Shown: positions 3,221 through 12,527 of the stretch, in pieces
How the letters are laid out: each line of letters begins with the position of its first letter
Numbering within the stretch: position 1 is the first letter of the stretch
Position numbers and translations under genes: made by a program
IMG/VR virus record: IMGVR_UViG_3300035670_000138
Span: 64,001 to 76,727 of that record
Length of the DNA stretch: 12,727 nt
DNA from: a virus
Lineage: Duplodnaviria; Heunggongvirae; Uroviricota; Caudoviricetes
Direction: 5' to 3' (one strand)
Notes under the pieces: generated by a model
The model's input: the letters and a program-made list of their open reading frames with translations, nothing else
The model's database searches: none
Told to the model about the DNA's origin: nothing

Positions 3221-3235
3221 ATATATAGTTGTTAA
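3221..3235 (-). promoter_or_regulatory. Putative phage late promoter motif TTAACAACTATATAT (copy 1, before portal)
   Basis: Exact 15-bp match to 6499-6513, immediately upstream of the portal SD. Confidence 0.6.
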
Positions 3236-3250
3236 TTTTTTTAATACATT

Positions 3251-4777
3251 TTAATCTTTTTTTCGAATATTTAGCAATTTTCTCATAAAATCAAGGGTTT
3301 CGCTGCTATCATTTTTCCATTTTGGAGAGACAAATGTATCCTTTCCTATGTTAATTCCATAGTTTTTAGGGAAGGGGTTCTTTGTTGCTTGAACATTTCT
3401 TACTAAATATATCAAAGCATCAAGGGCATCGGCGTGGGATCTTAATAGTCCAAGCTCGTCCATTCCCTCCAAATGCTTAAACTTATTTAAAAATGTACCA
3501 GACTTAGACGTTTGCCATTGTCCATACTTTACATGATATCTTAAATTCTTACATCTAGGATGAATTATTATCTTATCAGTATCCATCCACCTTCTTACAG
3601 TATCCACCGCCTGTTCCTTATTATGCTTTTCCGTAGGAACAAAGTTCATACCATAGAATCTAGACAGGTCGTTAATTAGCTTTAAGTCGTTATCCATTAT
3701 CCGCAAATAGGGTTCCACCAACTTTTTATGCTTAGTATTGAACCATAATTCTTCTCTATGTAATATTTCACGGTATAGTTTATCTGTAGTCATTTCTGGA
3801 CCATTTATAACATACTCATCCATTATAACTAATTTATTTATATTATAATCATAAAATCCAAAAAGAGCTACAGTTAAATCGTGGAAACCAACGTCGGCTG
3901 CAACATAGAAATCGCAATAATCTGGAATAGTATATTCCTGAACAATTTTAGCTTCATGCTGAGCAAACTCAGGTATGACGGTAGCTTCTGAAATATTAGG
4001 TATTTCGCAAAGATACTCGCATCTAAACTTAATATTGTTTAGTCCACCCGGATATCTCTTAATAATAGATTCTCTTGTTTTATCATTAATCATTGGTGAA
4101 GTATAAAAGTCGAACTTTAGTAACTTACCCACAGCTTCCATAGGGAATACAAATAATTTATGAAACGGATGGTTAGGATCTTTATCATTAGGAGTTGAGG
4201 CTAGAAATATCTTACCTCCGGTAGTATCTGTAGTAGGTGCTAATACTGAATAAACTACTGTCTCAAGTTCATCCATAAATCCTGCCTCATCGCAGATACA
4301 CATATGAGATGTTCCACCTCGAAGATTGTCATAGTTTCCGCCATCAGTTCCTGCTACTTGTATTTCAGATCCATTAGGGAAAGACCATACTTTTTCTTGA
4401 GTTTTCCATTCAGGTTTTAAGTCCAAAGGACAGTCTGCTATAATCTCGGAGATTCTAGGCTTTATAACTCTCTCAACCATTTTTTGTTGAGGACATGCAT
4501 ATTTAATAATTGACTTAGGATTTGCGATACAATACTCAACAGCAATAACACATAAAGTAAATGACTTACCGTATTGTCTTGAAATGAGACATGCTGATAT
4601 ATCCTCTGCACAATTTTTGAAATGATCGTAGATTAGTTTCTGATTACCTACTAGCTTCCAAGAAAGATTAGCTTTTCGCCAAAGTTGCTCAATAGCTTCT
4701 TCTTTACTTAGCTCTTTTTTTCTAGGAGAAGATTTAGGAGGTTTACCATAGGTATTATCCACCTTTTCCGCCTTCAA
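3251..4777 (-). CDS. terL: Terminase large subunit (ATPase plus RNase H-like nuclease)
   Basis: Walker A ISRQYGKS, Walker B ICDEAGF, coupling motif LASTP, nuclease acidic motifs ADVGFHD and HADALDA. Track start is TTG at 4777; GTG at 4762 (AAGGCGG 5 nt upstream, overlapping the previous gene's end) is an alternative. Confidence 0.95.
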   Translation of the reverse strand: MKAEKVDNTYGKPPKSSPRKKELSKEEAIEQLWRKANLSWKLVGNQKLIYDHFKNCAEDISACLISRQYGKSFTLCVIAVEYCIANPKSIIKYACPQQKMVERVIKPRISEIIADCPLDLKPEWKTQEKVWSFPNGSEIQVAGTDGGNYDNLRGGTSHMCICDEAGFMDELETVVYSVLAPTTDTTGGKIFLASTPNDKDPNHPFHKLFVFPMEAVGKLLKFDFYTSPMINDKTRESIIKRYPGGLNNIKFRCEYLCEIPNISEATVIPEFAQHEAKIVQEYTIPDYCDFYVAADVGFHDLTVALFGFYDYNINKLVIMDEYVINGPEMTTDKLYREILHREELWFNTKHKKLVEPYLRIMDNDLKLINDLSRFYGMNFVPTEKHNKEQAVDTVRRWMDTDKIIIHPRCKNLRYHVKYGQWQTSKSGTFLNKFKHLEGMDELGLLRSHADALDALIYLVRNVQATKNPFPKNYGINIGKDTFVSPKWKNDSSETLDFMRKLLNIRKKD

Positions 4778-6102: not shown

Positions 6103-6486
6103 TTATTTTTTATTTCTATCTTTTAACATTTTTAGAACTAACATTTTTCTAGCTAACTCATCATCAATACCTTCAGGAAGAGTTTTCATTGTTCTAGGAT
6201 TAATTTCTGATTCATCCTCTTCAGGTATATCTGCACCGAAATATGCTGCAAGTTTTCTACCTTCTTCTGACATACTAGTATCATGAAATCTACTGTCTTC
6301 ACTGTCACCATAATCTTTAGAAAATTTTGAAGGCTTATTAAATTTGTACTTCTCTACTCTTTCTAATCCTTCTTTATTGAAGTTTTCAAGAAAGTCAGCG
6401 TCACTCATTTCATCAAATGACTCTACTTCTCCGCCATCTTGATATTTCATCTTCTTTAAGGCATCTTTCTTAGAATTACAATTCAT
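6103..6486 (-). CDS. Hypothetical acidic protein, 127 aa, first gene of the late operon
   Basis: AGGAGA SD 6 nt upstream; preceded by the late-type motif at 6499-6513. Contains KKMKYQDGGEV. Confidence 0.8.
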   Translation of the reverse strand: MNCNSKKDALKKMKYQDGGEVESFDEMSDADFLENFNKEGLERVEKYKFNKPSKFSKDYGDSEDSRFHDTSMSEEGRKLAAYFGADIPEEDESEINPRTMKTLPEGIDDELARKMLVLKMLKDRNKK

Positions 6487-6498
6487 AGCATGTCTCCT

Positions 6499-6513
6499 AT
6501 ATATAGTTGTTAA
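6499..6513 (-). promoter_or_regulatory. Putative phage late promoter motif TTAACAACTATATAT (copy 2, head of late operon)
   Basis: Exact 15-bp match to 3221-3235, immediately upstream of the AGGAGA SD of 6103-6486. Confidence 0.6.
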
Positions 6514-7035: not shown

Positions 7036-7295
7036 TTGACTACTTAGGATTAGGTTTAGTGCTTATGGTTATATCTATAATGCAGTTTCTTGTTTTTAGA
7101 AAATACAAATCAATTAATATTATACAAAATTTATTTATATCAATATTCTCAAGTTTGGCAGTAATCGTGTCGGGGGTAGGAGGACTACTTTTAGTGGTGT
7201 CTGAACTGTACTATAAACTGATCCTTCTACTCGGGGGTATTGACATAGCAGATTTCCTTACTTTTCTAGGAAAGCAAAAGGAAGAAGATAAATGA
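7032..7295 (+). CDS. Small membrane protein, 87 aa, 2-3 hydrophobic segments
   Basis: GAGGAGG SD, ATGA overlaps at both ends, long hydrophobic runs. Confidence 0.8.
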   Translation: MIDYLGLGLVLMVISIMQFLVFRKYKSINIIQNLFISIFSSLAVIVSGVGGLLLVVSELYYKLILLLGGIDIADFLTFLGKQKEEDK

Positions 7296-7672
7296 AAAAA
7301 AACTACAAGGTGAAAGGGGTGACGAATGTAGTAAACATACCTCCTCATTCTCCGAAAGCTGAAAGAAGTAATAAAAATTATCAAAAAGGAACTAAGATTG
7401 ACTACATTCATCTAGCTTTACGTCAAAAGTTATTAAAAGCAATTATAACCGGAGGAACAATTGATACGCTTAACCCTAAACTCTATAACTTTGCAATAGA
7501 TTTTCTAAAGTTGGGAAATGATCTTATATATTCATTATTTTGGGGTTGGAATTGCATTACTCCACAAAAATTTGTTAAAATATATCCTAACACCTCGATT
7601 TATAATAAAATATTTGCCGATGAAATAATATTAAGCGATGATAAGTACTTAATAATAAGGAAGAATGTGTGA
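7292..7672 (+). CDS. YPN-module protein 1 (module C-terminal), 126 aa
   Basis: KIYPNTSIYNKIFADEIILSDDKYLIIRK near the C-terminus (Tyr codon at 7583). ATGA overlap with the previous gene. Confidence 0.8.
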   Translation: MKKNYKVKGVTNVVNIPPHSPKAERSNKNYQKGTKIDYIHLALRQKLLKAIITGGTIDTLNPKLYNFAIDFLKLGNDLIYSLFWGWNCITPQKFVKIYPNTSIYNKIFADEIILSDDKYLIIRKNV

Positions 7673-7959
7673 GAATAGGAGATGAGGTATACTTTTCGTT
7701 CTATGCTCACGATAGTAGAATCTATAAAGGTAAAATTTATAGTATTCACAAACACCTAGTTCAAATTCACGATATTGAAAGAGGTCGATTGTTCGAAACT
7801 CCTGCATCTCTAGTATTTTATTGTCTAAAGTATCCTAATACTCTTCTTTTTAAAAAGTTATATGAACATAATATTATTAAAGAGTTGGACAATCATCTGT
7901 GTGTATTAAAGGGATGCTCTGCTGATTATTTTAGGAGGCATTATAGTGGCAAAATCTAA
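7669..7959 (+). CDS. YPN-module protein 2 (SH3/KOW-like N-terminus, module C-terminal), 96 aa
   Basis: GTG start overlapping TGA. 'MRIGDEVYF...KGKIYSI...VQIHD' is a small beta-barrel pattern; LKYPNTLLFKKLYEHN at 7831. Confidence 0.8.
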   Translation: MRIGDEVYFSFYAHDSRIYKGKIYSIHKHLVQIHDIERGRLFETPASLVFYCLKYPNTLLFKKLYEHNIIKELDNHLCVLKGCSADYFRRHYSGKI

Positions 7960-8041
7960 TAGATTTATGCCGTCCCTCAAATATCTGAGTATAGTATTAT
8001 CAGATTATCATTCATTTATTCTCCGAGGTTTGCATGAGTAA
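7946..8041 (+). CDS. Small 31 aa ORF bridging two YPN genes (not in track)
   Basis: GTG at 7946 with AGGAGG 7 nt upstream. MAKSNRFMPSLKYLSIVLSDYHSFILRGLHE*. Overlaps both neighbours. Confidence 0.5.
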   Translation: MAKSNRFMPSLKYLSIVLSDYHSFILRGLHE

Positions 8042-8285
8042 AACTAGAACTATCAAATGTAAAATAGAAAAGACTAATTTCGGACCATACGCTGTTCATG
8101 TATATGCTTCTGACGGAATAGGATCATCATATTACTATTTAGCTTCACATGCTGCTATATTAGTTAACAGTACTTACTATAATGTTGAAAAAAGAGTGCC
8201 AAATACTGAAATATTCCGCAAATTATACCCCGATGCTATAGAAAATGGACAATTTTTGATAATTAGGGAGCTTAAACTTGAGTAG
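8034..8285 (+). CDS. YPN-module protein 3 (module C-terminal), 83 aa
   Basis: KRVPNTEIFRKLYPDAIENGQFLIIRE at 8196; CGAGG SD. Confidence 0.85.
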   Translation: MSKTRTIKCKIEKTNFGPYAVHVYASDGIGSSYYYLASHAAILVNSTYYNVEKRVPNTEIFRKLYPDAIENGQFLIIRELKLE

Positions 8286-8511
8286 AACTGTTGCTTGTCA
8301 CGTAATATCAAAGCTAGAAGACAAATTGTGGATCCTTCAGTTAAATCAGGGTAAACTTAGTTCCTTATGTATAAAAAACGACGATAAAATCCATTATAAT
8401 AAAGTTAAACTATTTCCAAATACTCGAATTTTTAAAGATTTATATCCAGAAGGTATTGAAAATGAAAATTTTTGGGAAATACGATATTTAGATCTTGATA
8501 ATTTAAAATAA
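8278..8511 (+). CDS. YPN-module protein 4 (module C-terminal), 77 aa
   Basis: TTG start with AGGGAG SD 7 nt upstream. KLFPNTRIFKDLYPEGIENENFWEIRY at 8413. Confidence 0.85.
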   Translation: MSRTVACHVISKLEDKLWILQLNQGKLSSLCIKNDDKIHYNKVKLFPNTRIFKDLYPEGIENENFWEIRYLDLDNLK

Positions 8512-8523
8512 ATATGCTATATT
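8495..8523 (+). promoter_or_regulatory. Internal sigma70-type promoter TTGATA-17-TATATT with extended TG
   Basis: -35 at 8495-8500, -10 at 8518-8523, TG at 8515-8516. Sits in the only true intergenic gap of the YPN array. Confidence 0.55.
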
Positions 8524-8543
8524 ATATCTAGGAAGGATGGAAA

Positions 8544-8792
8544 ATGAACAGATTTGCTGACATTTTTGAAGTATTAGCCGAGTTTTATGGATCACATAAT
8601 CTAGGAGTTGCAGTAAAAGTCTCTGTTAACACCGATACATACAGAGAATTACTAGCTTATGATAACTTTATAAAGCAAGAACAAGGAAATTACTCAATAT
8701 ACTCAGCTTTTTACGGTAAAATTCCTGTAGTAATCAATAATAACCTTCCGTCACCATGCCTTTTATTCAAGGATCAGAATGATAACTGTTAA
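8544..8792 (+). CDS. Hypothetical 82 aa protein, possibly with a degenerate YPN module
   Basis: AGGAAGGA SD. VNTDTYRELL aligns to PNTxIF/YRELY but lacks the Pro residues. Confidence 0.75.
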   Translation: MNRFADIFEVLAEFYGSHNLGVAVKVSVNTDTYRELLAYDNFIKQEQGNYSIYSAFYGKIPVVINNNLPSPCLLFKDQNDNC

Positions 8793-9123
8793 ATTTTATC
8801 CAAATTCTTCAATTTTTAAAGAAACTCTTAAGAATTATGTTGAGGTTGGCAATAAACTTAGAGTTATGGAGCTTGATACTGCAAAACATACTGAAAAAAA
8901 TGGACAAGAAGCTACTGACGAAGCTCTGGTTGTGTTAAACGAAATTAATAAATTCACAGAGTTAGATTTAAAAGATGAAAGAGATGTAGTAAACTTGTTG
9001 GCATTGTTTGACGATTTTGCATGTCCTGACGATTATCCAGTAGACACGGCAGAACAATTTATATCTTTCCTTCAAAGACATAGAGATAACATAATAAAGG
9101 CTTACAATGGTTCAGATGTATAA
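8779..9123 (+). CDS. YPN-module protein 5 (module N-terminal), 114 aa
   Basis: MITVKFYPNSSIFKETLKNYVEVGNKLRVME; acidic helical C-terminal domain. Confidence 0.85.
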   Translation: MITVKFYPNSSIFKETLKNYVEVGNKLRVMELDTAKHTEKNGQEATDEALVVLNEINKFTELDLKDERDVVNLLALFDDFACPDDYPVDTAEQFISFLQRHRDNIIKAYNGSDV

Positions 9124-9298
9124 ATACTACCCAAATACTATTATATACAAAGAGATATATCCAAAAGGGAACGAATACAAAGGCTTCTGGAGAGTTCCGA
9201 CAATGAAGATGGAAGTCACCTTTGACGGAACTACATATTATGATATAACCAATCTTCAGGACTATCTAAACCAGTTAGAAGATAAAGGATTACTATGA
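9107..9298 (+). CDS. YPN-module protein 6 (module N-terminal), 63 aa
   Basis: YKYYPNTIIYKEIYPKGNEYKGFWRVP at 9128. Confidence 0.85.
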   Translation: MVQMYKYYPNTIIYKEIYPKGNEYKGFWRVPTMKMEVTFDGTTYYDITNLQDYLNQLEDKGLL

Positions 9299-9519
9299 TA
9301 TACTTCTGGAAAGAAGAGAAGATGTATCCTAACACTAAGATATTCCGAGAATTGTATCCTAATGGTAAGGAATTTCAAGGTAAATGGGCGGTAGAATATC
9401 ATAAAGAAGTACTTAATACAAAAGGATACGAGAGTTCATACAAGCTTCTTGCAGACTTAGCTCAGTTGAGAAGGTACTCGAAAATATTAGGTATAGAAAT
9501 ATTTCAAAAGGATGAGTAG
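9295..9519 (+). CDS. YPN-module protein 7 (module N-terminal), 74 aa
   Basis: EKMYPNTKIFRELYPNGKEFQGKWAVE at 9325; ATGA overlap. Confidence 0.85.
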   Translation: MIYFWKEEKMYPNTKIFRELYPNGKEFQGKWAVEYHKEVLNTKGYESSYKLLADLAQLRRYSKILGIEIFQKDE

Positions 9520-9782
9520 TGTATTATAAATACCACAAGCTAATTAAAAAATTGTACCCCAACTCTAGTATTATTAGAGAGTTATATCCAAATGGTCGAG
9601 AATATAACGGTATGTGGGAAGTTAGTTATACAGGAGAAGTATGGAAAGTATTAAATACCGAAACGAGTCTAAGCTATACCTTTGATTACTACAATAGATT
9701 AGTTAGTGAGGGAATTTTAATTAAATATCATATGACTCGTAGTGAATATTCTGAATGGTTTGATAATAAATATGGGAAATAA
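9519..9782 (+). CDS. YPN-module protein 8 (module N-terminal), 87 aa
   Basis: GTG start overlapping TAG. KKLYPNSSIIRELYPNGREYNGMWEVS at 9555. Confidence 0.85.
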   Translation: MYYKYHKLIKKLYPNSSIIRELYPNGREYNGMWEVSYTGEVWKVLNTETSLSYTFDYYNRLVSEGILIKYHMTRSEYSEWFDNKYGK

Positions 9783-9987
9783 AAGAAATTTAACTGAAAT
9801 TATGTACAGTTGTACAACCTATCCTAACACTGAGTTATATCGGAGATTATATCCATATGCAGAACAGTCAGGTAAGTTCTTGATAACTCGAAAGACTTTT
9901 ATTAGTCCAAAAGCTCCAAAAGTTGTCAGCAAATCAGTTATTGACTTCGAAAAGGTTAAAGTGTTTACGGTAACTCTTTCAGACTAG
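9772..9987 (+). CDS. YPN-module protein 9, about 71 aa
   Basis: CTTYPNTELYRRLYPYAEQSGKFLITR at 9820. ATG 9772 is preferred over track start 9742 because it gives a shorter overlap with the previous gene. Confidence 0.8.
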   Translation: MGNKRNLTEIMYSCTTYPNTELYRRLYPYAEQSGKFLITRKTFISPKAPKVVSKSVIDFEKVKVFTVTLSD

Positions 9988-10221: not shown

Positions 10222-10518
10222 ATGAAAATTTTATTGTTAGGGTTATTACTTTTAGCAGGTTGCGGAGAAACTGTCTTAAAGGTTCCAGTAGATGAGTACG
10301 GTCATATATCTAACATGAAGAAAGAATGTTCTACTCATAAAGATGCTATTTTTGAAGTGTACGGAAATCTAATAGAATATTACAATTCTGAACGACCGAA
10401 GGGTTATAGCTATGAATTTCAACTAGTTGTTGAATGTAAGTACCGAGATATCACTAAAGTAGTTAAGCAAACAATAGAATACGGGAATAATCCTAAATAT
10501 AAAACTAGATGGTGGTAA
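10222..10518 (+). CDS. Lipoprotein, 98 aa
   Basis: AAGGAGG SD. Signal peptide MKILLLGLLLL followed by lipobox LAG-C (Cys14). Confidence 0.85.
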   Translation: MKILLLGLLLLAGCGETVLKVPVDEYGHISNMKKECSTHKDAIFEVYGNLIEYYNSERPKGYSYEFQLVVECKYRDITKVVKQTIEYGNNPKYKTRWW

Positions 10519-10603
10519 GTGTAATAAATAAATTATAGGGTTATCTGTTTTCTGAGTGATAGCTACACATTCTAACACTCGTAGAACCACCTACCCCCCT
10601 CCC

Positions 10604-10745
10604 TGCAAATCTCATGCCAATAGAATATCCGCAGTACTAATATCGTACTATAGACTTGTCATAGTTCTTGCATTAGCAAATATCGTGCCAATAGAATATC
10701 CGCAGTATATAGGCGAGCATATTGCATGTGCAAGTCTTGTGCCAA
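10604..10745. promoter_or_regulatory. Cluster of sigma54-type -24/-12 boxes
   Basis: Minus strand: TTGGCATGAGATTTGCA (10604-10620), TTGGCACGATATTTGCT (10675-10691), TTGGCACAAGACTTGCA (10729-10745), all GG-N10-GC. Plus strand: TAGGCGAGCATATTGCA (10710-10726) and degenerate TTGTCATAGTTCTTGCA (10656-10672). Confidence 0.7.
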
Positions 10746-10934
10746 CAAACATGGTACTAATCTCATACTATACTGCCAACTATTTGTGGCTTACACAATT
10801 GACTTATAGACTGTTTTTTATGGTCAACCCATACATTGACTAGGATAATTTTATCGCTTGTTATAATCAATTCTAGAGCGTTTTAGAACTATAGACTATT
10901 TTTATTTATTGGCAATTTCCAGAATATCCGAAGC
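10615..10934 (+). repeat. GAATATCCG repeats, block 1
   Basis: 22-bp TGCCAATAGAATATCCGCAGTA at 10615-10636 and 10686-10707; AGAATATCCGAAGC at 10921-10934. Confidence 0.85.
10859..10867 (+). promoter_or_regulatory. Extended -10 promoter TGTTATAAT
   Basis: Perfect TGnTATAAT. TTGACT at 10836-10841 is 20 bp away, so it is probably not the paired -35. Confidence 0.45.
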
Positions 10935-10963
10935 TATCCAGTAATATTTCAGTATAACATTAC

Positions 10964-10993
10964 AGTATATCACATAGTTATATATCAAGTCAA
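10964..10993 (-). promoter_or_regulatory. Leftward sigma70-type promoter TTGACT-18-TATACT with extended TG
   Basis: -35 at 10988-10993, -10 at 10964-10969. Confidence 0.5.
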
Positions 10994-11177
10994 GCAATAT
11001 TTTAGGATAACTATTTATTTTTTTGTCAATATTTATTTTCAATATTCAGTAATTTTTTTATATATGTAATTTTTATAGGGGTAGATTTTCAGAATTATTT
11101 TATTTTGGTATCATATATGTATAAGTCATTCGACTTAACCTAGTTATAGATAAGTTGTCATTATCGCAAAACAAAAC

Positions 11178-11203
11178 GCCCCTAGTCAGGGGCTTCATTT
11201 ATT
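11178..11203 (+). terminator. Rho-independent terminator, possibly bidirectional
   Basis: GCCCCT-AGTC-AGGGGC stem followed by TTCATTTATT; A-rich run on the 5' side. Confidence 0.65.
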
Positions 11204-11227
11204 TAGTGTAATTATTTTATTTTTTTG

Positions 11228-11257
11228 TTGACAAGATATTTTGATGCATGGTATAAT
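11228..11257 (+). promoter_or_regulatory. Strong sigma70-type early promoter TTGACA-18-TATAAT with extended TG
   Basis: Consensus -35 (11228-11233) and -10 (11252-11257) with an upstream T-tract; drives the 11286-12320 operon. Confidence 0.8.
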
Positions 11258-11285
11258 TATATAAGAACATAACAAGGGAAACAAT

Positions 11286-11357
11286 ATGTCAAAACTTTAC
11301 ATGATCGGACTAAATTTTATTACAATGATTATTATCGGCAACATTTTGGGGGTATAA
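11286..11357 (+). CDS. 23 aa hydrophobic peptide (not in track)
   Basis: MSKLYMIGLNFITMIIIGNILGV*. AAGGGA SD; first ORF after the strong promoter; ends in the shared junction motif. Confidence 0.6.
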   Translation: MSKLYMIGLNFITMIIIGNILGV

Positions 11358-11358
11358 C

Positions 11359-11835
11359 ATGGAAAATAAAATTACAATGAACGATGTTTTAAAGGGATAT
11401 GAAACAATCAAAAAAATAATTGACGATAAAATAAATGACTATAACATATGGTTTATTCAATCAAATAATGCCCCTAGTACCTTTAAAGGGATAAAAAAAT
11501 ACTACAATGAAAATAGTATGTTATTAGTATATAACGGCGGGGATCATGGCTTACTAGGTCAAGAGTATAACGTCAAGTTTAGAGCATTGCATGACTATAT
11601 GCATATTAAATTTAACTTATCGTTCAGTTATGACGATGAGAAGAAATTATCAGATATAACTAGTACAATGTTTAGTCTATATGCATATGATTCTTTAAAT
11701 TGTACTCAATGGGAATCATACGTTATTAAAATGATTTTATCTGCTGAAATTAAGGGGCAAATTGAGTACTACGAGCAAAATAAGAGTTATGTTGTAGATC
11801 AAACAAAATTTATTTTAAACTATATGGGGGCATAA
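11359..11835 (+). CDS. Hypothetical 158 aa protein with FRALHDYMH motif (putative metal-binding HDxxH)
   Basis: NVKFRALHDYMH...FSYDDE...AEIKGQ. GGGGGT SD. Confidence 0.85.
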   Translation: MENKITMNDVLKGYETIKKIIDDKINDYNIWFIQSNNAPSTFKGIKKYYNENSMLLVYNGGDHGLLGQEYNVKFRALHDYMHIKFNLSFSYDDEKKLSDITSTMFSLYAYDSLNCTQWESYVIKMILSAEIKGQIEYYEQNKSYVVDQTKFILNYMGA

Positions 11836-12362: not shown

Positions 12363-12527
12363 TGGAATATCCGTAGTTATTTCATAACGTACGAATGGAA
12401 TATCCGTAGTTATTTCATAGAATATCCGAAGCATATAATTTTTATAGGGTACTTGACAACACAGGAATTTTATGTTATACTGTAATTTGATTCAAAATTT
12501 GATTGCTTGTTAACGGAATATCCGTAG
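12363..12527 (+). repeat. GAATATCCG repeats, block 2
   Basis: 24-bp TGGAATATCCGTAGTTATTTCATA at 12363-12386 and 12396-12419; AGAATATCCGAAGC at 12419-12432; GGAATATCCGTAG at 12515-12527. Confidence 0.85.
12453..12481 (+). promoter_or_regulatory. Sigma70-type promoter TTGACA-17-TATACT with extended TG
   Basis: -35 at 12453-12458, -10 at 12476-12481. Confidence 0.7.

Follow-up and report, generated by a model that had tools for sequence, protein, structure and literature searches.

Sigma-54 is, to our knowledge, the one bacterial sigma factor that parks polymerase silently on DNA, and cells hold little of it. The closest described counterparts of the sites reported here are the -24/-12 promoters of Salmonella (glnA, pspA, hypA, yeaG; PMC3844500) and the more than 135 sites in Escherichia coli at which sigma-54 holoenzyme was found in an inactive state (Bonocora et al., PMC4591121). 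Single intragenic sigma-54 sites in E. coli did not reduce the expression of the genes they overlap, and repression was seen where a sigma-54 site overlaps another promoter (PMC4591121). Here, we analysed a stretch of 12,727 nucleotides (the window), which makes up positions 64001-76727, the final 12.7 kb, of the record of an uncultured phage in IMG/VR (IMGVR_UViG_3300035670_000138), and which carries a cluster of sigma-54-type boxes in a block of 840 bp without genes (window 10519-11358), flanked by a lipoprotein gene (10222-10518) on the left and early genes (from 11359) on the right. The phage boxes share the TGGCAYG-N4-TTGCW core and the GG-N10-GC spacing with the Salmonella promoters, and they resemble the non-productive sites of E. 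coli and Salmonella (PMC4591121; PMC3844500), which are bound but inactive, lie in either orientation and are often far from gene starts. However, those sites are single, scattered, mostly intragenic and often sub-consensus, whereas those of the phage are intergenic, of consensus grade and arranged in arrays, and the cluster as a whole is conserved. They also differ from bacterial sigma-54 promoters in having no activator gene, no driven gene and, on inspection by eye, no recognisable enhancer, and in being clustered on both strands, head-on or close-packed. The A1-A3 promoters of phage T7 are strong sigma-70 promoters that all point toward the early genes and lie more than 100 bp apart; the boxes are like them in placing dense host-polymerase sites in a gene-free block before early genes, and unlike them in being sigma-54-type and pointing both ways, with a separate sigma-70 promoter serving the early genes. 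In the literature searched, no account of arrays of sigma-54 sites in phage genomes turned up; the type of site is known, and its arrayed, head-on, phage-restricted use appears to be undescribed there. Reported effects of rpoN on Salmonella phages were ascribed to glutamine and RpoS (PMC8744999). Because a head-on pair of such sites recurs in unrelated phages and is essentially absent from bacterial genomes, as detailed below, phages probably capture or exploit host sigma-54 in an undescribed way.

Three minus-strand boxes (boxes 1 to 3; Table 1) carried 0, 0 and 1 mismatches to TGGCAYG-N4-TTGCW and kept GG-N10-GC in 3/3, in agreement with a preliminary description of this DNA, whose box ends (10620, 10691 and 10745) include the additional 5′ T of TTGGCA. 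That description also placed the boxes in face-to-face pairs. The head-on junctions are indeed exact, with a 2-nt gap (TTGCA-TT-AGCAA at 10668-10679 for box 2; TTGCA-TG-TGCAA at 10722-10733 for box 3), but the plus-strand partners are far weaker than implied, the one of box 2 having lost the GG and the one of box 3 carrying 3 mismatches. In relatives, the partner of box 2 is often a full box; the partners in the window are decayed. Two degenerate copies of the box frame, of the TAGTA type, also lie in the window, and at the position of the right-hand copy the related loci L012, L015, L027 and L035 (related loci and contigs bear L numbers) carry a full box beside a TGCCAAC...GTGGC dyad. The layout of a box followed by a G-run, as in box 1, was found in L010, L012, L029 and L035 as well. 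When 29 intergenic Salmonella sites defined by chromatin immunoprecipitation (ChIP; PMC3844500) were counted by hand, 6 showed no mismatch, 16 showed one and 7 showed two; by this count the phage boxes match the 12-position core at least as well as the ChIP-defined Salmonella sites. Several phage boxes are one to a few bases away from the yeaG, proV or pspG sites.

A scan against shuffled sequence confirmed the excess of boxes: at up to 2 mismatches the window held 4 matches against 0.48 expected, and 4 were reached in 0/200 shuffles. At up to 1 mismatch, the whole 76.7-kb genome held exactly these 3 sites, all within 141 bp, against about 0.56 expected, and 20 second-order Markov simulations of the genome gave 0-2 sites each. 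A 32-nt direct repeat (94% identical) contains boxes 1 and 2, and box 3 belongs to a 79% repeat of box 2, so the three boxes are not independent events; the intragenomic statistics overstate independence and the case therefore rests on comparison across genomes.

Relatives were gathered from assemblies, IMG/VR and Joint Genome Institute metagenomes with a 158-amino-acid (aa) early protein (11359-11835) as the marker, which was 44-63% identical among the loci used for the family analysis. The family consists of phages of 77-85 kb with a family B DNA polymerase and a guanine-cytosine (GC) content of about 34%, and the contigs of several relatives are 79-85 kb long. Similar clusters, which the preliminary description had suggested looking for in non-coding regions of related phages, were found in most relatives: they lie in a gene-free region upstream of the marker and comprise 3-14 boxes (6 in L010, 5 minus and 1 plus; 6 in L015; 5 in L034; 6 in L035; 14 in L032), L027 having one head-on pair and 4 tandem boxes. 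In a 92%-complete relative (80.1 kb), 6/6 boxes fell within 440 bp with none elsewhere, and a reversed-pattern control gave 0. We then counted half-site combinations at spacings of 0-12 in 21 non-redundant family loci (128 kb). TGGCA-N6-TTGCA occurred 60 times and any other spacing 0-2 times, while at N6 the reversed order and the TGGCA-TGGCA and TTGCA-TTGCA combinations were each absent (0). A different binding protein had been thought to be indicated if homologous loci kept TGCCAA and lost the GG-N10-GC spacing; instead, the spacing is conserved in these loci. On the same counts (0 same-half or reversed versus 60 ordered) we rejected a PhoB-like tandem homodimer on TKGCA half-sites 11 bp apart. 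At positions that had not been used for selection, T was present at -27 in 45/72 boxes and a purine at -19 in 60/72, and TT at -15/-14 was invariant although mismatches were allowed; the -27 T and the -19 purine agree with the extended sigma-54 consensus, as reportedly given by Barrios et al. 1999.

The spacers differ among boxes, and within head-on pairs they show no complementarity, which argues for selection on protein contact positions rather than on a hairpin. Accordingly, head-on pairs as RNA or DNA hairpins were rejected for the window, L010 and L015; a few boxes of L032 do sit in terminator hairpins. The variation bears also on the idea that the boxes are functionless by-products of local duplication of one chance match, an idea that the direct repeats around boxes 1 to 3 would suit. 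Clusters with different spacers at the syntenic place in relatives, in which the marker protein is no more than 45-60% identical, already contradict it, and we consider it very improbable. By every sequence test available, the boxes are sigma-54-type sites, in one conserved cluster per genome.

The orientation of the boxes did not follow that of the genes. Strict family boxes numbered about 31 on the plus strand versus about 28 on the minus strand, while the flanking genes are uniformly plus; this count used the strict-box list, and a split into coding and non-coding DNA by open reading frames (ORFs) was discarded because spurious ORFs cover the clusters. Judged from this count, function would be independent of site orientation, as in a decoy array, and several consensus-grade sites are clustered in non-coding DNA without a regulated target, which is the other mark of such an array. 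Same-strand neighbours are typically 27-29 nt apart in the family and head-on boxes 18 nt from start to start. A distance of 27-29 nt is about the size of a closed-complex footprint and far below the spacing that initiating polymerases need, and head-on sites would drive polymerases into each other.

We further looked for a gene or transcript that the boxes could serve. The minus boxes point antisense into the lipoprotein gene, and the sole minus ORF downstream (10590-10423, 55 aa), which overlaps the end of that gene and owes its Shine-Dalgarno-like GGGAGG-N7-GTG to the G-run after box 1, had no family match and was not conserved as a protein in relatives. The GTGGTT recurs in L010 and L014, but the encoded peptides are unrelated, so this ORF is probably not a gene. 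No PHROG family was found for the ORFs covering the cluster (10556-10843 plus; 10590-10423 minus), gene callers leave the homologous regions of relatives empty, and an Rfam search over the region returned one sub-threshold chance match and no credible RNA. The earlier statement that the boxes have no gene to drive thus holds in practice. The G-run of box 1 spans -10 to -1 and is hard to melt. No enhancer-like dyad was recognised by eye at -80 to -150 of the minus boxes, where no systematic search was made; upstream of them lie further boxes and GAATATCCG repeats. Neither the PF00158 activator domain nor the PF04552 sigma-54 DNA-binding domain is encoded in this genome, GAFTGA is missing from all six frames, and PF00158 was absent from another 35 viral records that carry the pair (at least 90% complete in 14 cases); these searches covered phage records only, and the host may supply an activator.

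These results bear on the most serious rival, that the boxes are activator-dependent sigma-54 promoters fired by an infection-induced host enhancer-binding protein or an unrecognised phage activator, and yielding leftward antisense or early RNA. In the window, an antisense RNA across the lipoprotein and small-protein operon would shut down or time that operon, and a host activator might answer membrane, RNA-damage or nitrogen signals, for example. The motif is the full promoter consensus, and a few single boxes in relatives are well placed, in the right orientation and at promoter distance (L032 1550, L012 365, L015 1555), which is why this rival has to be taken seriously. Moreover, intragenic and antisense sigma-54 sites of Salmonella can fire when an activator is supplied (PMC3844500), and antisense RNAs have been reported in the timing of the Pakpunavirus PAK_P4 (PMC5563952). 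On the other hand, none of the 36 phage records encodes an activator, orientation is neutral, head-on pairs and tandems of 26-29 nt would lead to polymerase collision or exclusion, and bacteria use sigma-54 promoters yet essentially never show the head-on pair. The G-run of box 1, the lack of a conserved downstream ORF or Rfam RNA, and the lack of an enhancer-like dyad at the distances inspected by eye count against it too. Overall, we hold promoter function to be somewhat unlikely. Promoter use and occupancy may coexist. If the boxes were promoters, host activators would couple phage timing to the stress or nutrient signalling of the host, and such a link, too, has little documentation. In L072, boxes are dispersed and most fall within genes, so that nothing could be learned from them.

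Given that the head-on pair is the most distinctive arrangement, we scanned for TGGCA-N6-TTGCA-NN-TGCAA-N6-TGCCA, which specifies 20 bases. The pair was present in 49 IMG/VR stretches among 2.9 million contigs, at 33-60% GC, and about 8/49 of these stretches share proteins with this phage. In contrast, 596 Gb of cellular sequence (185,579 bacterial and archaeal genomes) gave 2 matches, with about 0.5 expected by chance. One lies inside a short-chain dehydrogenase gene of a Butyrivibrio metagenome-assembled genome (MAG), amid sugar-metabolism genes, and is at chance level; the other, assigned to a Burkholderiaceae MAG, equals a viral contig in size and match coordinates (L067 = L106) and is a mis-binned viral contig. 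Many of the viral stretches hold additional pairs and arrays: L064 and L074 have four consecutive pairs each, and L084, a contig unrelated to the family, has three pairs together with tandem boxes at a spacing of 26 nt. When three other array-bearing contigs were compared with cultured phages by BLAST, no useful match emerged. Since the same asymmetric 16-bp unit occurs in unrelated phages of differing GC content, a conserved host factor is the simplest explanation; a shared host factor would most simply account for the pattern, more so than a shared phage protein.

This distribution is also where another phage or host binder that shares the sigma-54 consensus, or a role at the level of DNA such as origin, packaging or cassette recombination, has to be weighed. 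The repeat-rich surroundings, with GAATATCCG, the TGCCAAC...GTGGC dyad and the degenerate TAGTA copies, suggest several binders, many arrays lie less than 1 kb from contig ends and could reflect genome termini, and boxes of L032 sit at the junctions of repeated terminator-promoter cassettes. However, the 12-position match, exact spacing and strict half-site order would otherwise be a remarkable coincidence, and unrelated phages of 33-60% GC would need a common binder; none was identified, no systematic search for a shared phage protein having been made. The 0 same-half combinations exclude a tandem homodimer on TKGCA, GC skew has no extremum at the cluster, and the 158-aa protein has no sigma-54 likeness and is present in cultured phages lacking boxes nearby. 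We therefore regard such a binder or DNA-level role as improbable. As to position, many arrays lie within a few hundred bases to 1 kb of contig ends (L056, L063, L066, L084, L086, L092, L093, L096 and L098 in IMG/VR; L012, L024 and L040 in the family); either the assemblies were broken there, or the arrays are near physical genome ends or in first-entering DNA.

Pseudomonas aeruginosa has RpoN, with well-developed RpoN genetics. Five pair matches were Pakpunavirus genomes (PaP1, phiMK and relatives; about 93 kb), lytic on this species, which makes the question testable at the bench. The preliminary description took the cluster to imply an RpoN-encoding host, and for these cultured phages that inference holds. 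Pakpunavirus phages, including JG004 and over 100 sequenced relatives, carry the pair in an intergenic region that is conserved; in phiMK this is a 630-bp gene-free region between gp33 and gp34, in which a sigma-70-like TTGACA-17-TAGAAT follows the pair. The PaP1 region is found at about 78-80 kb of a 91.7-kb GenBank record, which leaves 12-14 kb to the end of that record. Of the 134 matching Pseudomonas phage records, most are 93-100% identical over the pair region, and the more distant UAVern and XD2 keep the pair with different spacers. A third box keeps its distance from the pair (about 135-148 nt; about 135 nt in phiMK) and is on opposite strands in phiMK (L107, 2545-2560) versus XD2 (L109, 839-854) and UAVern (L108, 849-864); this flip in place suggests that the presence of the box matters and its direction does not. 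No mention of the Pakpunavirus sites was found in the literature searched.

The preliminary description had read the cluster as a sigma-54 decoy or roadblock, or as a coupling of phage timing to the host RpoN state. Core match, spacing, order, orientation neutrality, the conserved head-on pairs and the absence of a phage activator fit sites that work by binding better than they fit ordinary promoters, while the roadblock variant meets counter-evidence in E. coli (PMC4591121). The reading we prefer, tentatively, is that the boxes act by occupancy, as high-affinity capture sites that would hold host sigma-54 polymerase in silent complexes. Sigma-54 holoenzyme would be the binder and would form stable silent closed complexes on the boxes, and the sites would work by being occupied, not through a useful transcript; little productive RNA would be expected because the phage has no activator and the boxes face each other or are close-packed. 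A scarce host factor would thereby be captured, and replication of the phage DNA could drain sigma-54 polymerase from host stress or defence promoters. Bound complexes may also compete with sigma-70 polymerase at adjacent sites. A broader and more doubtful version is that head-on pairs and packed arrays form a phage-specific class of DNA element, distributed over many unrelated lineages with Pakpunavirus among them, that traps sigma-54 polymerase as a replicating sponge and silences host stress, motility or defence programmes.

Several observations weigh against action by occupancy. The cluster in the window is small, with 3 good sites, fewer than in many relatives; only weak boxes were found in L008 and L018, and L023 had no good box in the 7 kb examined. 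Since L023 has no good box and those of L008 are weak, the element is dispensable or variable. Possible true promoters exist among the relatives: the L032 box at 1550 is 37 nt away from a start codon downstream that has a ribosome-binding site, and conserved sequence follows the last plus box of L012, L015 and L035. That draining sigma-54 benefits the phage is conjecture, and the phage needs core polymerase of its own, some of which a sink would bind as well. If capture is nevertheless what the sites do, an array of consensus sites would let a phage capture or redirect sigma-54 polymerase cheaply and without any protein, and a sponge would mean host takeover by non-coding DNA instead of protein; with the pair in dozens of unrelated viral contigs and essentially no cellular genome, this would be a general, apparently undescribed phage strategy.

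The sequence immediately left of the cluster, where the upstream operon ends, is C-rich and G-poor and finishes in a C-run (Table 1). This was so in 9/9 family loci that were checked, with 18-29 C against 6-17 G in the 80 nt there, and in L012 the C-run is the very start of the contig. Because such a tract resembles a Rho loading site, we considered a Rho-assisted boundary, in which the tract would load Rho on read-through RNA and box-bound polymerases would stall incoming polymerase, so that the early promoters are insulated. The tract in 9/9 loci speaks for this, as do the absence of an intrinsic terminator 3′ of the gene ending at 10518, the minus boxes of L032 that lie at gene ends in terminator hairpins just before sigma-70 promoter modules, and the strong boxes that face incoming transcription in the window and L010. 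However, experiments in E. coli looked for a roadblock by single sigma-54 sites and saw none (PMC4591121), the boxes do not keep one orientation relative to the tract (the first boxes of L015 and L027 are plus), and the Pakpunavirus pair is preceded by purine-rich, not C-rich, sequence. An insulating role of this kind is accordingly unlikely in our estimation. In L032, the hairpin-embedded minus boxes lie at 2452-2490 and 3690-3728, in intrinsic terminators (GAACCGT...ACGGTTC plus T-run), and with the sigma-70 promoter that follows they form a repeated cassette. This module at gene-cassette junctions is reminiscent of the PeSL-type promoter/stem-loop cassettes of T4-like phages; the window boxes, unlike those of the PeSL-like cassettes of L032, are not in hairpins. 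We know of no PeSL element that carries sigma-54 motifs.

Table 1. Sites and neighbouring sequence elements of the box cluster (window coordinates)
Feature	Sequence	Position	Strand	Remarks
Sigma-54-type box 1	TGGCATGAGATTTGCA	10604-10619	-	0 mismatch; G-run GGGAGGGGGG directly after, on minus strand
Sigma-54-type box 2	TGGCACGATATTTGCT	10675-10690	-	perfect match to TGGCACG-N4-TTGCW
Sigma-54-type box 3	TGGCACAAGACTTGCA	10729-10744	-	GG-N10-GC intact
Plus-strand partner of box 2, degenerate	TGTCATAGTTCTTGCA	10657-10672	+	GG broken
Plus-strand partner of box 3, weak	AGGCGAGCATATTGCA	10711-10726	+	GG-N10-GC kept, 3 mismatches
Degenerate box copy, left	TAGTACGATATTAGTA	10635-10650	-	same 16-nt frame; spacer as in box 2; GG to AG, GC to GT
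Degenerate box copy, right	TAGTATGAGATTAGTA	10755-10770	-	spacer as in box 1
C-rich, G-poor tract	ends in CCCCCCTCCC	10563-10603	+	immediately left of cluster
Dyad	TGCCAACTATTTGTGGC	10774-10790	+	two -24-like halves back to back, without -12 element
Repeat	GAATATCCG	10623-10631	+	3 nt past box 1; other copies at 10694-10702 and 10922-10930
Bidirectional intrinsic terminator		11178-11193		inside the 840-bp gene-free block
Consensus sigma-70 promoter	TTGACA-18-TATAAT	11228-11257	+	TG before -10 hexamer; drives early genes rightward

Further motifs accompany the boxes. The TGCCAAC...GTGGC dyad is also present in L012, L014, L015 and L027, and occurs 4 times in L032, directly downstream of sigma-70 promoters. 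The L032 dyads, of the TGCCAAC...TTGTGGCA type, lie at about 1447-1470, 2120-2140, 2520-2545 and 3765-3790, just 3′ of the sigma-70 -10 elements of repeated terminator-promoter cassettes; the dyad is possibly an operator for an early regulator. The preliminary description put further copies of GAATATCCG at 12365-12516. In L010 (about 3877) and L012 (about 36), GAATATACG adjoins boxes, and repeated TTGACA(A/C) elements are present in relatives.

The phage record (76.7 kb, 33.6% GC) is 91% complete according to CheckV. The genome encodes a family B DNA polymerase, a primase-helicase, ribonucleotide reductase, thymidylate synthase, a portal and a large terminase, and no RNA polymerase gene was recognised. 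Late and structural genes occupy the minus strand, running from about 70.5 kb towards 30 kb of the record, small early-type genes are on the plus strand from 70.9 kb over the record end to 30 kb, and the box cluster forms the left border of the early control region. GC skew showed no extremum at the cluster, on which ground a replication origin there was rejected. No tRNA genes that could hint at the host were found in the genome, the window DNA had no match among cultured phages, and exact-repeat and single-protein scans of IMG/VR found nothing.

The marker used above belongs to PHROG 7806. Its very confident model (predicted local distance difference test score 96) is all-helical with two short strands, and the residues D62-H63, H78-D79 and H82 are invariant; no Pfam family was found for the protein and no fold match in PDB for the model, and it may be a metal-dependent enzyme. 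T7-like phages of Pseudomonas, Xanthomonas, Caulobacter and Salmonella encode homologues in their early regions. Among its neighbours in relatives is an S-adenosylmethionine (SAM) lyase gene, which the 158-aa gene adjoins; SAM lyase is a typical early anti-restriction gene, also found in T3. An early protein beside the SAM hydrolase of phage Q19 has been said to resemble sigma-54 (PMC7693777). A sigma-54-like nature of the 158-aa protein was rejected, as it had no Pfam family, no match to a solved sigma-54 structure and no fold match, and its homologues occur in cultured T7-like phages without boxes nearby.

Two observations concern the rest of the genome. The element TTAACAACTATAT lies on the minus strand directly 5′ of the ribosome site of six late genes or operons, in the window at 3223-3234 and 6501-6512, with four more copies in the genome at 38319, 44051, 62085 and 63682; it is likely a late promoter or leader. 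Small early proteins with a YPN...LYPNG-type module form a large family, encoded at 7292-9987 in the window and at 6193, 20667 and 21026 in the genome.

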